Positions 4,338-11,026 of a stretch of DNA of 37,164 bases are shown here, in pieces. How positions within the stretch are numbered: the first letter of the stretch is position 1; each line of letters begins with the position of its first letter. The stretch comes from a virus (lineage: Duplodnaviria > Heunggongvirae > Uroviricota > Caudoviricetes): IMG/VR virus record IMGVR_UViG_2541047856_000006, one strand, 5' to 3'. A model generated the notes under the pieces. The model was not told where the DNA came from and searched no databases. It was given only the letters and a program-made list of their open reading frames with translations. A program made the translations under genes and the position numbers.

Positions 4338-4727
4338 ATGATTGACGCTCATGACTTCACAAGATGGGTGCGCACACAGGACACCCGTCTGGCTCCCATT
4401 CTTCAGGGATTATTTGATCTCTACATCCGTGGTCGTGACAACAGAGCACGCACCACAAAACCGGAGAATGCGGACACCCTTTATTTCACAGTAGACGACT
4501 GCTACCGCGTGGATTTCACACCACACGGGCTGGCGTTGCACTGCCTGACACCACACGGCGAATCACTGCTGGCGTATTACGACTCCCCGGCCTCCGTATT
4601 TGCGGCAATGCTGGCGCATCGCACTGCTGGCGGGTGTGCCTCGCTGAGTGAATACACCGCTGAATTTAACCGCCTTTCCGCCATCTTCTCGCAGGAGTGG
4701 CAGCGCGTGACGGGATACCAGCCATGA
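4338..4727 (+). CDS. Hypothetical protein immediately upstream of A (position of P2 B; homology not established)
   Basis: 129 aa; its stop overlaps the A start (ATGA). Confidence 0.5.
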   Translation: MIDAHDFTRWVRTQDTRLAPILQGLFDLYIRGRDNRARTTKPENADTLYFTVDDCYRVDFTPHGLALHCLTPHGESLLAYYDSPASVFAAMLAHRTAGGCASLSEYTAEFNRLSAIFSQEWQRVTGYQP

Positions 4728-7549
4728 GTGAGTTTGCATGGAGCTGGAATGAACCACGGCCAGCCATTGATCCGGCCAGATTTACGGAGCGCAGGCAGGA
4801 AACTGAAACCGACCTGCAACGCGCCATCCGTTACTACCTTGAGGCGGACAAAAGGGCACAGGAAGAACAGGAAGCGAAGGAAGAAGCCTTTTTCGCACAA
4901 TCCTCCATGGGTAAAAAACTCATGGCATCCCTTGAGGAAGCCGGACAGCGTGAAAAGCTGGCACAGAGCATCATCAGTAAGCGCCGGGCAACAGAACAAG
5001 ACCCGGTAGCCCGTGCCTTTGCCACACTAAAGGCACTACCTGTTTATCTGCGTGAACCACTGAGCCGCCACCTCTCTTTCCTGCGCAAAAAACAGGAAGC
5101 CGATCGCCAGAAAGGCAAAAAGAGCTGGCAGGCGGAACGCTATGCACGCGGAACCCTGCGCAAAATATTCGAACGTCTGGATCGCACTGACGGACGCTGG
5201 CTGACACCGGGTTATCGCTCCCTTGCCGGGCGCGAACGCCTGGACGATTTGCTTTACCTGCCGCAGCTCAACAAGCACCAGATACAGACGCTGGCCACCA
5301 TGACCGCGGCGATGTTCAGCAGCACCTTCGAAACACTCTGCGATGGCTTTGGTGCCAGAGATGGCGAGCTGACCATGGATGTAATGTTGAAGGCTTACCG
5401 GATGCTGGCTCGTATCGCATTACGCCTGCACATCATGCCGCCACATTACGAAGCCCTGAACAAGAGCGAACCGGATACGGAACTGCTGCCGGGCGCAATC
5501 CTTCGCCTGACCTGTGCGGACTGGTGGAAACGCAAACTGTGGCTGTTACGTTGTGAGTGGAGAGAAGAACAACTCCGCGCCGCCTGTCTGGTTTCCAGAA
5601 AAACATCACCCTATCTGAGCCAGGACGCGTTAAGCGAGTTTCGCGCACAGCGCGAGAAAACCCGCGACTTCCTGAAGAGCTTCGAACTGGAAAACGAAGA
5701 CGGCTTCACGATTGATCTCGAGACAGTGTATTACGCGGGAGTAAGTAACCCGGTTCACCGTAAGGCAGAAATGATGGCCACCATGAAGGGACTGGAACTT
5801 CTGGCCGAAGCCCGTGGCGACAAAGCGGTGTTTCTGACTGTCACCTGCCCGTCAAAATACCACGCCACAACAGAGAACGGTCATCCGAATCCCAAATGGA
5901 ACGGGGCCACCATGCGCGACTCCAGCGATTACCTGGTTAACACCTTTTTTGCGGCGGTCCGCAAAAAACTGAACCGCGACGGCCTGCGCTGGTATGGCAT
6001 CCGCACGGTGGAGCCTCACCATGACGGCACCGTGCACTGGCATATGATGGTCTTTGCTCATCCGGAAGAAATCGACAGCATCGTGGCCATCACCCGCGAT
6101 ATTGCCATTCAGGAAGACCGCCACGAGCTGGGCAATGATATTACTCCGCGCTTTAAGGTGGAGTACGTCGACGGCTCCAAAGGCACGCCAACCAGCTACA
6201 TCGCCACCTACATCGGAAAAAACCTGGACAGCCGCGCCGTGGATGGAATCGATCCGAAAACGGGCAAACCACGCGTTGACCACGAAACCGGAAAATCAAT
6301 GGCCGAGAGCGTGGAGCGCGCCATCGGCTGGGCGCGCCTTCATCGGGTCCGCCAGTTCCAGTTCTTTGGCATCCCCTCCCGTCAGGTGTGGCGTGAACTG
6401 CGCCGCCTTGCCAGCCAGATGGCACGCAACCCGGAAGGCCCGCAACGGCTGAAGGATGACGCAATGGATGCGGTACTCGCTGCCGCCGATGCCGGGTGTT
6501 TTGCCACCTACATTGAAAAACAGGGCGGCGTACTTGTTCCACGCAAAGACTACCTGATTCGCACTGCCTACGACCTCGCAGATGAGCTGAACGATTACGG
6601 CGAACAGAGCGTACAGATTTACGGGATCTGGTCACCACTCATCGGGGAATCCTCCCGTGTGTGCACGCATCCGGATAACTGGAAGCTGGTAAGACGTAAA
6701 CCGGAAGCGGAAGACAGCGCCCGCGAAAATGGTTTTGACCTTCAGGGCGGCCCAGCCGCCCCTTGGACTCGTGGCAATAACTGTCCCCGTGTACAGGAAA
6801 CGAACAACAACGGGACAGAACAGCCGGAAGAACGGCCAGCACCGTGGCCGCAGCTCCCTGACGGCGTTGAAGTGAATGAATGGATGCGCTCACTGAAACG
6901 GCACGAACGCCGGGCGCTGATGCGTTCGCTGCGTGACAAACAGGCAAAAAACAGCAGTGATGAAATGCAGAGCTGGACACAGAGCCGCAAACAGCAGCGG
7001 CCTTTGCCTGATAACCACGAATTACTCGCTAAAGAATGGCGGGAGTCTGCTGAATCTCTCGGCCTGCATATCGGTGAACAGCAGATGCAGCACCTGTTAC
7101 GGGGCGGCAGTCTGTACGTTGACGGCAGCATCATTGCACCGCAGGGATTTGAAATTGTACGCAAACCGGATACCCGACCGGACAGCCGGATCACGCAGCT
7201 CTGGCAGCGCCTGAGCCGTAACCACGGCGTAAGCAGCACGGAGATCCGCCATAACCCGGTCGTCAGCTACCTGGAACAGCTGGGGGCATCAGACCCCGAA
7301 GCCGCCGCACGCCTGGCATTCACACTTCAGCAGGACCAGAACACCATGAAAACACCCGTTACCGTGCTTTCTGACATGCTGCGCGCCATCCGCGACGCAG
7401 AGCACGCACAGAGAATCAGTGAAACCACTGAACGCGCCCGCCGCAAAGCAGACCTGCTGCGGGGTGGCCTGACCAGTGGAAACAAAAAACAGACAGAAAC
7501 GGGATTCACAAATCCCGTAAATGAGCAAAAAACGCGCCGCGATATATGA
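4724..7549 (+). CDS. A: Rolling-circle replication endonuclease (P2 gpA family)
   Basis: HUH-type motif HDGTVHWHMMVFA and paired tyrosines YIATYIGK. The ATG at 4724 overlaps the upstream stop. The C-terminal region is longer than the ~760 aa remembered for P2 A. Confidence 0.93.
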   Translation: MSEFAWSWNEPRPAIDPARFTERRQETETDLQRAIRYYLEADKRAQEEQEAKEEAFFAQSSMGKKLMASLEEAGQREKLAQSIISKRRATEQDPVARAFATLKALPVYLREPLSRHLSFLRKKQEADRQKGKKSWQAERYARGTLRKIFERLDRTDGRWLTPGYRSLAGRERLDDLLYLPQLNKHQIQTLATMTAAMFSSTFETLCDGFGARDGELTMDVMLKAYRMLARIALRLHIMPPHYEALNKSEPDTELLPGAILRLTCADWWKRKLWLLRCEWREEQLRAACLVSRKTSPYLSQDALSEFRAQREKTRDFLKSFELENEDGFTIDLETVYYAGVSNPVHRKAEMMATMKGLELLAEARGDKAVFLTVTCPSKYHATTENGHPNPKWNGATMRDSSDYLVNTFFAAVRKKLNRDGLRWYGIRTVEPHHDGTVHWHMMVFAHPEEIDSIVAITRDIAIQEDRHELGNDITPRFKVEYVDGSKGTPTSYIATYIGKNLDSRAVDGIDPKTGKPRVDHETGKSMAESVERAIGWARLHRVRQFQFFGIPSRQVWRELRRLASQMARNPEGPQRLKDDAMDAVLAAADAGCFATYIEKQGGVLVPRKDYLIRTAYDLADELNDYGEQSVQIYGIWSPLIGESSRVCTHPDNWKLVRRKPEAEDSARENGFDLQGGPAAPWTRGNNCPRVQETNNNGTEQPEERPAPWPQLPDGVEVNEWMRSLKRHERRALMRSLRDKQAKNSSDEMQSWTQSRKQQRPLPDNHELLAKEWRESAESLGLHIGEQQMQHLLRGGSLYVDGSIIAPQGFEIVRKPDTRPDSRITQLWQRLSRNHGVSSTEIRHNPVVSYLEQLGASDPEAAARLAFTLQQDQNTMKTPVTVLSDMLRAIRDAEHAQRISETTERARRKADLLRGGLTSGNKKQTETGFTNPVNEQKTRRDI
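7496..7521. promoter_or_regulatory. Palindromic element 1 (ACGGGATT-caca-AATCCCGT)
   Basis: 8-bp perfect inverted repeat at 7499..7518 with AAA flanks, inside the 3' end of A. A near-identical copy lies 73 bp downstream. Confidence 0.5.
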
Positions 7550-7568
7550 AGCGCGCATAAAACAGGCA

Positions 7569-7594
7569 AAAACGGGATTTCAGAATCCCGTAAA
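7569..7594. promoter_or_regulatory. Palindromic element 2 (ACGGGATT-tcag-AATCCCGT), putative ParR-binding centromere/operator
   Basis: Same 8-bp stem at 7572..7591, ~35 bp upstream of parM. The pair flanks an AT-rich GATATAT segment. Confidence 0.5.
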
Positions 7595-7625
7595 CGATTA
7601 ATTAATCAACATAAGGAAAAGCGAC

Positions 7626-8585
7626 ATGAAAATTTGTATCGATGACGGCTCCACCAACATCAAGCTGGCATGGACTGAGAACGGCGAACGCCGCAACGCC
7701 ATCAGCCCGAACAGCTTCAAGTCGGAATGGTCTGCGCCGTTCGGTGGCACGCAGCCCGCGAACTACATGCTTGATGGCGTGCGCTATGGTTTTGATCCGG
7801 TCAGCGATCGCTTTGTCCAGACGACCGACACGCAATACCAGTACAGCGATGTGAATGTCATTGCCATTCATCACGCGCTGGTCAAATCAGGCATCACACC
7901 ACAGGAAGTGGATGTGGTTGTCACCCTGCCACTGAGCGAGTATTTCGACACAAACGCACAGCCGGACATGGCCAACATCAACCGCAAAAAAGCAAACGTC
8001 ATGCGCCCGGTGGCGTACCAGAACGGAAAAGCATTCACTATCCGTAACGTACGGGTTATGCCTGAATCCATTCCGGCTGGTTTTAAAGCACTGGCTGACA
8101 TGAGTCCGTTTGAATCCCTGCTGATTGTGGATTTAGGCGGAACCACGCTGGATGTGGCAAAGGTTCAGGGGCAACTGGCAGGTATCAGCCAGGTGTTTTG
8201 CGATCCACACGTAGGCGTTTCTCTGATGGCCAATGCCGTACTGTCGGTGATGGCCACTAACGGTATGCGCACCAGTCACCACATCGCCAATACCATTATC
8301 GAACATCGCCATGATGAAGCCTGGCTGCGCCAGCACATCCACAATGACGCGCATTACGCCAGCCTGATGGCGGTTATTCGTGAAAAGGAAGAAACACTGA
8401 AACAACGCGTGATCCGCGCGCTGGCGGGTTTTTCGGGTTACGGGCGGGTGATGGTTGTCGGTGGCGGGGCGGAGATTGTGGCACCCGCTATCCGCGAAGC
8501 CTGCGGAGTTAATGCGACTTTCATCGCGGACGGGGTGCCACAGTTTGCTCTGGTTAATGGGCTGTACGCAATGGACAAGGAGTAA
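7626..8585 (+). CDS. parM: Actin-like segregation ATPase ParM/StbA
   Basis: N-terminus MKICIDDGSTNIKLAW...ISPNSFKSEW...YSDVNVIAIHHALVKSGI closely matches the remembered plasmid R1 ParM; DLGGTT and VVGGGA phosphate-binding motifs present. Confidence 0.88.
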   Translation: MKICIDDGSTNIKLAWTENGERRNAISPNSFKSEWSAPFGGTQPANYMLDGVRYGFDPVSDRFVQTTDTQYQYSDVNVIAIHHALVKSGITPQEVDVVVTLPLSEYFDTNAQPDMANINRKKANVMRPVAYQNGKAFTIRNVRVMPESIPAGFKALADMSPFESLLIVDLGGTTLDVAKVQGQLAGISQVFCDPHVGVSLMANAVLSVMATNGMRTSHHIANTIIEHRHDEAWLRQHIHNDAHYASLMAVIREKEETLKQRVIRALAGFSGYGRVMVVGGGAEIVAPAIREACGVNATFIADGVPQFALVNGLYAMDKE

Positions 8586-8589
8586 ACCA

Positions 8590-8901
8590 ATGACGACACC
8601 AACCAGACGGATAAGTTTCTATCTGAAGCCCGCCGCCGTCAAGAACGAAGGCGAAGCATGCGCATGGCTGGACAGCCTTACACCAGAAGCCCGCAAAAGC
8701 GGCCAACGCGTGGCTTTTCTGGCCGGGCTGGCACTTCTGAAAATGAATCCGGCAGAGGCTTACCGACTGGCTGCATGGGCTGACGATGAGACGTTATCAG
8801 TGACACAAACCAGGACAGAACGCCCCGAGTCACAGCCAGTACCAACCGCACAGATAACCAGTCAGATGGCCGGAAATATCAGGGCGTTATTTCCTGAATA
8901 A
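8590..8901 (+). CDS. parR: ParR/StbB-like centromere-binding adaptor
   Basis: 103 aa directly after parM; MTTPTRRISFYLKP...AFLAGLALLK resembles the remembered R1 ParR N-terminal ribbon-helix-helix region. Confidence 0.65.
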   Translation: MTTPTRRISFYLKPAAVKNEGEACAWLDSLTPEARKSGQRVAFLAGLALLKMNPAEAYRLAAWADDETLSVTQTRTERPESQPVPTAQITSQMAGNIRALFPE

Positions 8902-8964
8902 CACAACATCAGGGCGAGTTCGCCCTGCTCTCCACCTCAGAACATAAACAAGGAGAACGACATA

Positions 8965-9489
8965 ATGAGCGAAATCAACTATCAGGCATTACGTGAGGCA
9001 GCACAAAACTATCAATCGACGCTGGCGTGGTATGAGGCCATCGCGGATAACCCAAATGCTGAGCAGGATTGTAACGAAGCAGTGGCGGCGTTTAAGCGTC
9101 AAATCCGTCATCAGGAAATGGACATTATCGCCGAGCTGCTGGAAGAACTGGAAACCAAAGACAACAGGATCGCTGAACTGGAAAAAATCGCCACTGACCA
9201 TGCACTTAAATTCCAGAAAGCACAGGACGCATTAAAGCATACCGCTTTGCTGCATAGCCGGACGGCGCAACAAACAAATAATTTTGCAGTATCGCTTCCG
9301 GACATAAGCGAATATTTCATTAATGACGTATTTCAGCCCTTGCGATACGAGCGGGATGTTGAAAGAGCCATCATAAAGGCTGGCGGAAAAGCATTGTGGC
9401 AGGAGAAACACGAGGACAGAACGCATCAGTCCTGCGATGTAAATTGTGGATGGTTTAGCCCACTGACGACAGATAAAAATAACACCTGA
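8965..9489 (+). CDS. Hypothetical coiled-coil protein
   Basis: 174 aa; good spacing from an upstream AAGGAGA; central predicted coiled coil (ELLEELETKDNRIAELEKIATDHALKFQKAQDALKH). Confidence 0.55.
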   Translation: MSEINYQALREAAQNYQSTLAWYEAIADNPNAEQDCNEAVAAFKRQIRHQEMDIIAELLEELETKDNRIAELEKIATDHALKFQKAQDALKHTALLHSRTAQQTNNFAVSLPDISEYFINDVFQPLRYERDVERAIIKAGGKALWQEKHEDRTHQSCDVNCGWFSPLTTDKNNT

Positions 9490-9501
9490 TCTCCCTCAAA
9501 C

Positions 9502-9527
9502 CAGGGCGATAATCGCGCATCGCCCTG
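9502..9527 (+). other. Stem-loop after the accessory operon (possible terminator)
   Basis: CAGGGCGAT-aatcgcgc-ATCGCCCTG, 9-bp stem; no clear T-run follows. Confidence 0.4.
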
Positions 9528-9979
9528 CTGCACAATAGTGCACAAATTTGCACAATTTTTTTGAACGACTTTTTACCCTTCAGGCCCGCATGGCGGCTGG
9601 ATCCGTCAAGGATCCGTGCATGCACAAAAAAACGCGTTTTTTCTGCGCGCAGGTGACGGGGGAACAGCCCGCGTTTCAGGGGGTAAATAGTATTCCCTGA
9701 GCGATGTCGCAGCGACATAACAGAATGGCCATATTTCTCACGCTGAGCGTGAAAAAGATGTGAGGGCTTTTGATTTGATGGGGTGAAAGGTAAGGCCGTC
9801 AAAATCGCACTGAGGCGGTGAGAACATGCAGTCAGCGCGGTGGGATTGCGTAAGAGTCTGACCGTCGATGATGGTAATAAACAGGAAAGCGTCGTGAAAT
9901 TATCTGATTGATACAGGAGCTGGAGAGTCGGGGCATAAATTTTTTATGCCCCGCCGAAGCAGCAGACAAGCGAAGCGCG
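9528..9979. other. Non-coding, palindrome-rich region; probable cos/packaging region
   Basis: ~450 bp with no credible ORF, next to portal and terminase. Contains several short palindromes (AAAAACGCGTTTTT, ATGTCGC/GCGACAT, TCACGCTGAGCGTGA) and a GGGGCATAAA-ttt-TTTATGCCCC hairpin at 9928..9950. The exact cohesive-end sequence was not identified. Confidence 0.4.
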
Positions 9980-11026
9980 TCAGGATGTGGGCTGGGTGTC
10001 TAACAGTGCGTAAGGGTTAAAGCGAATCACCTCTTCGCCAAGCCAGTCATTGATGTGCTTCATGGCCTCCATGACGGGCATCAGCTCGTTAATTGCGTAA
10101 ACCCGCGCGGCCTTCTCCACATCACCAAACGCACTTTTTTCGCCTGGCATCGCCCCCATCAGTTGCGGCGGAACGCGGTGCGCAGCCAGCACATCATCAC
10201 GGGATGCCACCTTAACATTCATGAACTCATCCTTTGCGGTGATCTGCTGGAACGGCAAAATTTGCACCCCCTCTTTGCCACCGTTGGGCGCATGAATGAG
10301 CACGTTTTTAAACGCACCACCACCACGCGCACCCTGTAGCGTTTCTTTCAGGGAGTCCATGCTTTCGCGGTTTACCTGCGCTGCACCGATGTAGATGATG
10401 CACCCGGCGTGGGATCCGTTGTCGTAATACAGTTTTCTGAACATGTCCGCCGAATGAGACAGGCTGGCCGAGAGTAATGCGCCGAGATATTCCGGCATGC
10501 CGTAGATTTCCTGGTTAATGTCAGGATTCATCAGGTGGCACACTTTGCCAGGGCGAAACTGAAACGCGTCCTTGCCATCCTGCACATACCACCATGATTC
10601 AAGATCGCTTCCGCGTCGCATGTATTTCGCCAGGGCGTGCCGTAATTTAAGCGGTTCGCCGAGCATATTGCTTCGAAGCTCAAGGAATGCGTTACCGAAC
10701 ACAAACCAGTCCAGCGCCAGCGCCGAGAAATCCTGCCGGGAAAGCAACGGGTGCGGGATGTAGCAACCGAGTAATACATTGCGCTTAAAGTAAAGCGCAG
10801 ACTGATGCCAGGACGTTTGCCGGGCAGCTCTTGCCAGACCGTACCAGTCCACCGGGGTTTCATACCACCGCCCGTTATCAGCACAGTACATATTGTCCAG
10901 CAGGTCATGCCCGGTCAGGCGATAAGGACCATCAAATGTGAATGCACTGAGCGATGATTCTTTCCTGAGCGCATCAGCGAGATCAATGCGTGAACTCATG
11001 CGCACTTTTTTATTTTTTCTGCTCAT
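9980..11026 (-). CDS. Q: Portal protein (P2 gpQ-like)
   Basis: 348 aa, directly downstream of and overlapping the large terminase; size and position match P2 Q. Confidence 0.88.
   Translation of the reverse strand: MSRKNKKVRMSSRIDLADALRKESSLSAFTFDGPYRLTGHDLLDNMYCADNGRWYETPVDWYGLARAARQTSWHQSALYFKRNVLLGCYIPHPLLSRQDFSALALDWFVFGNAFLELRSNMLGEPLKLRHALAKYMRRGSDLESWWYVQDGKDAFQFRPGKVCHLMNPDINQEIYGMPEYLGALLSASLSHSADMFRKLYYDNGSHAGCIIYIGAAQVNRESMDSLKETLQGARGGGAFKNVLIHAPNGGKEGVQILPFQQITAKDEFMNVKVASRDDVLAAHRVPPQLMGAMPGEKSAFGDVEKAARVYAINELMPVMEAMKHINDWLGEEVIRFNPYALLDTQPTS

Follow-up and report, generated by a model that had tools for sequence, protein, structure and literature searches.

To our knowledge, experimental work on the Ead/Ea22 family has so far come from lambdoid phages only. 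In these phages ea22 is an early gene, and lambda or Phi24B phages from which it has been deleted have a shorter latent period and a larger burst, and fewer of their hosts survive; lysogenisation also drops upon deletion in lambda, with an m.o.i.-dependent effect in Phi24B (PMC7093339). Full-length Ea22 forms a tetramer and the C-terminal domain of the lambda protein a dimer, the published plan of Ea22 is a three-part mosaic with an exchangeable C-terminal domain, and three Ea22 variants of Stx phages have been described (PMC10834534). In P2-like phages, the gpA-gpQ hotspot is enriched in anti-phage systems, with some of its cargo serving other functions (PMC9122126), and about a quarter of P2-like phages are reported to carry a partition system.

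The gene analyzed here lies in a 37,164-nt stretch of viral DNA (IMG/VR record IMGVR_UViG_2541047856_000006, hereafter the window), in which the open reading frame list places it at 8965..9489 on the plus strand, with an ATG at 8965, a TGA at 9487-9489 and a 174-aa product that ends in ...DKNNT. These are exactly the position and length given by the sequence-only reading that we followed up. A Shine-Dalgarno sequence, AAGGAG, was found 9 nt 5' of the ATG (8950..8955, plus strand) by direct reading of the sequence. On the basis of the open reading frame list, a PF13935 match and named homologues, we annotated 8965..9489 as an Ead/Ea22-like coding sequence.

This assignment differs from the sequence-only reading, which had left the protein unassigned and recognized no motif in it. 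A Pfam scan returned a clear match to PF13935 (Ead/Ea22-like) over residues 2-118 (59.7 bits against a GA of 27, E=5.9e-16), and the alignment spans profile positions 1-134 of 139 (InterPro IPR025153). A large protein database yielded 323 matching proteins; among the matches listed, PF13935 was present in 119 of 120, and the named homologues were almost all "ead/Ea22-like family protein". RefSeq gives this same name to entries from E. coli and Salmonella that are 95-99% identical to the window protein, and annotates a parM - parR - ead/Ea22-like block in complete E. coli genomes. The PHROG matches were to families 16519, 250 and 368, all of unknown function. Searches of NCBIfam, PADLOC and PDB sequences with the whole protein gave spurious weak matches only, and Pfam and NCBIfam scans of the protein revealed no enzymatic or membrane domain. 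Thus, of the profile and structure searches that had been proposed for this protein, the former gave PF13935 and the latter no match to a solved structure. The 174-aa protein is almost certainly a member of the Ead/Ea22 family, and the only one within the window; this membership is already known, in that public annotation names the protein as such.

Many database entries with 90-99% identity have an unbroken reading frame, as do 23 complete E. coli genomes (coverage of at least 80%), and comparison with a 94.7%-identical allele from E. coli cq9 gave a pN/pS of 0.56 and zero frameshifts. The cq9 prophage itself (L159, 1-1585) has a gene A that is annotated as frameshifted, together with intact parM, parR and Ea22-like genes, and this prophage copy is probably defective. 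Three other alleles (P0007, P0012 and P0023) have lost the stop codon and are extended by 25 residues into the hairpin/terminator region (...DKNNTCSPSNQGDNRASPFCTIVHKFAQFF).

Upstream of the gene and on the same strand lie the replication gene A (4697-7549, PF05840), parM (7626..8585; PF06406, E=6.9e-82, and PF21523, E=2.5e-68) and parR (8590..8901; Plasmid_stab_B, PF10784, E=5.7e-25), whose RefSeq homologues are 103 aa long. Downstream, the portal gene Q (9980-11026) is on the minus strand, and the large terminase gene P is also on this opposite strand. P88-like phages (Xuanwuvirus, Peduoviridae) match about 72-75% of the first 25 kb of the window at 95-96% identity. When the linear record of Xuanwuvirus P88_4B11 (NC_049391) is mapped onto the window, its two ends fall at ~9573 and ~9576; if record ends are physical ends, a cos site is probable at ~9573-9576, and the Ead/Ea22-like gene is the last one before it, with the probable site ~85 nt past the stop codon. 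The 19-mer of the P2 cos site was absent from the window, and the site was placed from these record ends instead.

The sequence-only reading had placed an accessory gene between parR and the cos region, at the end of a hotspot, and had considered homology to a structural or housekeeping protein as the outcome that would speak against it. The location agrees with our analysis, since parR ends at 8901 and the probable cos site is at ~9573-9576, as does the accessory status, given that the gene occupies the cos-proximal part of the gpA-gpQ variable region and has a GC content of 45-49% across its length compared with ~55% in the flanking core genes. The gene belongs to Ead/Ea22-family cargo and is neither structural nor housekeeping. 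We conclude that it is swappable cargo, carried in the cos-proximal part of the gpA-gpQ region by a prophage of the P88-like type (Xuanwuvirus, P2 family). Table S5 of PMC9122126 already lists this arrangement, so that the position within the P2 gpA-gpQ hotspot had been catalogued before and adds little to discovery; the Ead/Ea22 family is, however, frequent cargo of P2-like prophages too, sometimes as tandem pairs.

Several further features of this region and its relatives were observed. Just 5' of parM, a 42-nt direct repeat is present in two copies (7483-7524 and 7556-7597; 81% identical and 73 nt apart), each of which holds a 20-nt palindrome, ACGGGATT..AATCCCGT, and the first of which lies within the 3' end of gene A; the repeats could serve as the parC centromere or as an operator for ParR. 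Three relatives that are P2-like prophages (L006-L008, 5405-6540) carry two tandem Ea22-family genes encoding 199 aa and 179 aa with a 4-nt overlap, and in a fourth (L005) the first tandem Ea22 copy is in fragments. A P2-like prophage segment was also found in a Gram-positive assembly, 'Vagococcus sp. WN89Y' (NZ_JBQPOM010000071.1), with proteins that share 92-99% identity with their window counterparts; this contig probably reflects contamination or a mislabelled assembly.

Two GC-rich hairpins with the same arms bracket the gene. The first (CAGGGCGAGTTCGCCCTG, 8910..8927) between parR and the gene, is probably not a plus-strand terminator because it has no T-run on that strand, and the second (CAGGGCGA...TCGCCCTG, 9502..9527) was read from the sequence just past the stop codon; the pair may mark cassette boundaries or serve as RNA-stability elements. 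A consensus scan additionally identified a terminator-like hairpin on the plus strand (9538..9563) that consists of GTGCACAAATTTGCAC followed by the T-run AATTTTTTTG. Both ends of the P88_4B11 record map ~10 nt beyond this site, which is the probable end of the rightward transcription unit. Within 7400-10100, the consensus scan detected no sigma-70 consensus promoter and Rfam gave no match. Since the gene is on the same strand as A, parM and parR, with no plus-strand terminator in between and a terminator-like site after it, the simplest reading is that it closes the rightward early/partition A-parMR transcript as its most likely last cistron; this transcription unit remains inferred, as no promoter was found in 7400-10100.

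The protein itself is a mosaic. Residues 1-13 (MSEINYQALREAA; 8965..9003, plus strand) form an N-cap that is the most widely shared element of the family, with the pattern MSxIxxQALREAA near-invariant across 20 relatives (alignment A1). Residues 14-57 (9004..9135, plus strand) make up a variable helical module in whose place relatives have unrelated cassettes. It is followed by a conserved long helix and putative coiled coil at residues 58-100 (core RIAELEKIATDHALKFQKAQDALK; 9136..9264, plus strand), defined by an AlphaFold2 (AF2) helix and near-invariant columns; its sequence is RIAELEKIATD[HY]ALKFQKAQDALK, and columns 68-95 are invariant or near-invariant in the alignment of relatives. A conserved C-terminal mini-domain, delimited by alignment and AF2, occupies residues 101-147 (core 107-147: FAVSLPDISEYFINDVFQPLRYERDVERAIIKAGGKALWQE; 9265..9405, plus strand), and the last 27 residues (148-174; 9406..9486, plus strand) form a tail that is predicted to be disordered, with a pLDDT below 50. 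This tail is shared by close relatives only, nearly all from P2-like prophages, and is absent from remoter carriers of the mini-domain; it accounts for 9 of the 18 amino-acid differences from the cq9 allele, and the two cysteines are not conserved.

The central coiled coil described by the sequence-only reading holds as a helix but less securely as a coil. AF2 predicted residues 32-107 to be one long helix (pLDDT 70-86), and a 7-residue hydrophobic repeat can be picked out by eye (I55, L62, I69, A76, F83, L90), but a crude heptad score did not set the helix apart from shuffled sequences, 691 of 2000 of which reached it. It is thus chiefly from the literature on the family that the coiled-coil label derives (PMC10834534).

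Exchange between modules is evident at the DNA level. Residues 1-60 are 66% identical to an Ea22-like protein from the nin region of EDL933, with 84% identity over nt 14-189 of the gene, and nt 184-525 are 98% identical to alleles in E. coli genomes that have different 5' parts. More generally, alternative N-terminal modules were found on the same C-terminal half, and vice versa, both in the alignments and among E. coli DNA matches. In our reading, the gene was acquired by recombination, its 5' part being akin to lambdoid prophage alleles and its 3' part common to P2-like alleles.

The C-terminal module is the most distinctive part of the protein. An exhaustive HMMER search with residues 100-174 against 1.84 billion cluster representatives recovered only 21 clusters; in all 21, the module ends no more than 3 residues from the C-terminus, and the proteins range from 68 to 322 aa with varied N-terminal parts. 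Fifteen residues were invariant across 24 sequences (P112, Y117, F118, I119, F123, Q124, P125, R127, Y128, E129, D131, E133, A135, A139 and G140), and AF2 run with the alignment gave a pLDDT of at least 90 over about residues 107-136. No fold, sequence or profile match for the module was found in PDB and BFVD. When 50,697 phage records were searched by tblastn, only 12 matched the module, and the Stx phages that define the published Ea22 variants were not among them; the phage carriers were P88_4B11, P22-like Salmonella phages and two Escherichia phages. Judged by its sequence, the module is unrelated to the C-terminal domain of lambda Ea22 (PDB 8DSX).

Pfam scanning of 24 carriers gave PF13935 in 7, marginal DUF551 matches in 5 and dATP/dGTP pyrophosphohydrolase in 2. 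DUF551 (PF04448) was considered as an identity for the module and rejected, as the window protein has no match to it at E<=1; the DUF551 matches of the five other carriers (21.5-22.7 bits against a GA of 22) start on WISCSEQMP just upstream of the module, a segment that is absent from the window protein. One speculative reading of these data is that the module (F-x-V-x-L-P...Y-F-I-x-x-V-F-Q-P-L-R-Y-E-R-D-x-E-x-A, ~42 residues) is an undescribed portable binding domain and that Ea22 proteins are adaptors that aim such 'warheads' at a single conserved target in the host or in a defence system, for counter-defence or host takeover. The scaffolds that bear it could then include Ead/Ea22 helices, DUF551 proteins and dATP/dGTP pyrophosphohydrolases. 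We consider this improbable; if true, it would explain why the family is mosaic as well as why its phenotypes are pro-lysogenic. In either case, the module is very conserved and portable, has no Pfam model or structural match of its own, and could be used as bait for the Ea22 target.

The sequence-only reading had also raised the possibility that the protein is a third component acting with ParMR. Such a component might, for instance, adapt or regulate ParM filaments or the complex that ParR forms with parC. The arrangement of the genes invites this idea: the gene directly follows parR in the same orientation, and the 63-nt gap between the two holds no plus-strand terminator. Type II partition systems such as that of plasmid R1 are, however, already complete with ParM, ParR and parC. 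We fetched 80 IMG/VR loci via ParM proteins at least 98% identical to that of the window, in 61 of which both parR and Q were present, and searched the interval between these two genes for Ea22-family open reading frames using an HMM built from the family alignment together with a motif search. Only 16 of the 61 ParMR loci had an Ea22-family open reading frame in this slot, and the other 45 had other cargo. In phage P88 (NC_026014), for example, parR is followed in this slot by a ClpX-zinc-finger-like gene and hypothetical genes, and a different Ead/Ea22-like gene, short at 104 aa, precedes A within the early operon (L160, regions 74-388 and 6696-7363). Conversely, when 57 viral loci were anchored on the C-terminal module, ParM and/or ParR were nearby in 34, which favors a link, but 2 were P2-like without either and 21 had no P2 or ParMR marker. 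These co-occurrence statistics were taken from IMG/VR contigs because a scan of species-representative genomes yielded only 5 loci. An Ea22-family protein with the same module was found in a P2-like prophage that lacks ParMR, another module-bearing Ea22-family gene lies in the segment between a CI-like repressor and the integrase of a Citrobacter prophage, and lambda, P22 and EDL933 prophages likewise have family members without ParMR. Linkage to ParMR is thus neither necessary nor sufficient. A role as a ParMR component is highly unlikely and finds no support in these comparisons; the gene is very probably independent of ParMR, a separable piece of cargo that is often in the same hotspot.

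Other roles can be weighed against the same set of observations. The gene could be a prophage defence or superinfection-exclusion gene, functionally equivalent to P2 tin/old at the same locus, as the enrichment of the gpA-gpQ hotspot in anti-phage systems, the variable content of the slot and a GC content below that of the flanks might suggest. Yet some cargo in the hotspot catalogue has other functions (PMC9122126), the protein has no enzymatic or membrane domain, and no defence model in PADLOC-DB v2 matched it, the best hit being PtuA at 13.5 bits (E=0.0058) over residues 15-107 in the helical part. The gene also runs in the direction of the early operon, no promoter was found for it, and lambdoid and P22-like phages have its relatives in lytic early operons (the exo-xis region in lambda, the ea region in P22 and the nin region in EDL933). 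Those relatives that have been characterized modulate development and are not defence genes. A defence role is quite unlikely. The early-operon location of family members is in line with the converse idea, in which an Ead/Ea22 scaffold would present a swappable C-terminal 'warhead' that blocks a defence protein of the host or of a prophage and so protects this phage early in infection or induction. In favor of such counter-defence are the extreme mosaicism combined with a very conserved small terminal module, and the presence of that module on DUF551 and dATP/dGTP pyrophosphohydrolase proteins as well, a phage pyrophosphohydrolase of the latter kind having been cited as an inhibitor of host restriction enzymes (PMC10834534). 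In addition, fusions between an EaD/Ea22 protein and Oad2, an anti-OLD protein akin to P22 EaE, have been reported from some phages in a 2026 preprint (10.64898/2026.07.10.737580). The window protein itself showed no similarity to Oad2 (HK446 gp27) by BLASTP (E=0.94), and an identity as an Oad2/EaE anti-OLD protein was rejected on this comparison; Oad2 has no Pfam match. Since the phenotypes of ea22 in lambda and Phi24B are moreover developmental (PMC7093339), we regard counter-defence as unlikely.

It could instead be argued that the protein does little and that its conserved segments (N-cap, central helix and C-terminal module) persist as linkers for DNA recombination. Break points do fall on conserved blocks (98% for nt 184-525 and 84% for nt 14-189), a pN/pS of 0.56 indicates relaxed purifying selection, and read-through and truncated alleles occur. 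On the other hand, the module is maintained at the protein level in carriers whose DNA has diverged, with its 15 invariant residues and a confident predicted fold, the gene has a strong Shine-Dalgarno sequence and is intact in many genomes, and deletion of ea22 from lambda and Phi24B has phenotypes (PMC7093339). We therefore consider evolutionary debris a very improbable explanation.

The reading that we prefer is that of an early-acting, oligomeric modulator of lytic versus lysogenic development. Ead/Ea22 proteins would be small, non-enzymatic, largely helical proteins built of exchangeable modules, in which the conserved long helix probably drives oligomerisation and the oligomer would bind a protein of the host or phage through the C-terminal module. 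By analogy with Ea22 of lambda and Phi24B, such binding might slow lytic development and thereby favor host survival and lysogeny. P2-type phages have a different lysis-lysogeny switch, C/Cox. Because of this difference, and because the C-terminal domain is unlike all characterized ones, the pro-lysogenic mechanism is put forward tentatively, as a possibility that falls short of being probable. Functional transfer from lambda and Phi24B is weak, given that the C-terminal domain differs from that of lambda and that the Stx-phage variants were unmatched. As a whole, the combination of family membership, cargo status, position as last cistron and action as an oligomeric modulator is the best explanation of the data, and we consider it somewhat probable.

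Comparison with individual family members shows how far the likeness extends. Lambda Ea22 (NP_040612), like the window protein, matches PF13935 and is encoded by a non-essential accessory gene; the two are of similar size (182 and 174 aa) and have a common plan of a short N-terminus, a long helix and a separate C-terminal domain. Twelve of the 14 N-terminal residues are identical, but pairwise similarity ends after residue 14. Lambda Ea22 matches the structure of its own C-terminal domain, 8DSX, at 1.2e-51, whereas the window protein has no PDB sequence match. The lambda gene is in the lambdoid exo-xis region (pL early operon), and the window gene follows A-parMR and precedes the portal gene Q in a P2-like phage. 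The R/K-G-E C-terminal tripeptide of lambdoid Ea22 proteins (PMC7093339) is also absent from the window protein. An identity as lambda-type Ea22 proper was therefore rejected, as the 8DSX domain, the exo-xis location and the tripeptide are all missing.

P22 EaD (YP_063721), the namesake of the family, has the N-cap MSNIDKQALRE and the helical middle part in common with the window protein, but their pairwise similarity is marginal (E=0.12-0.21) and the C-terminal module is not shared. The Ea22-like protein of a lambdoid prophage of E. coli O157:H7 EDL933 (WP_000515959) belongs to the same family and shares the variable module, but has another C-terminal half, and its gene lies downstream of the prophage replication genes, in the nin region. 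The reverse combination is seen in gp30 of Salmonella phage ST160, orf32 of phage SE1 and 'Ea22' of Escherichia phage PhiR46_1, which have the same module, ...EYFIDGVFQP(L/M)RYERD(V/C)ERA..., at the extreme C-terminus, whereas their N-terminal parts are unrelated to the window protein and do not match PF13935. The ST160 gp30 gene comes directly after replication genes and beside nin genes, and the PhiR46_1 gene is in an operon with an exonuclease gene. The closest counterpart is gp56 of Xuanwuvirus P88_4B11 (YP_009877445, 196 aa, annotated as 'hypothetical protein'), which occupies the same slot after parM-parR as the last gene before the record end. Although its residues ~12-60 form a different, longer CxxC cassette (CPICGEEM) and its PF13935 match is fuller (113 bits), its first 10 residues are identical to those of the window protein (MSEINYQALR), and the two proteins are near-identical over residues 62-174.
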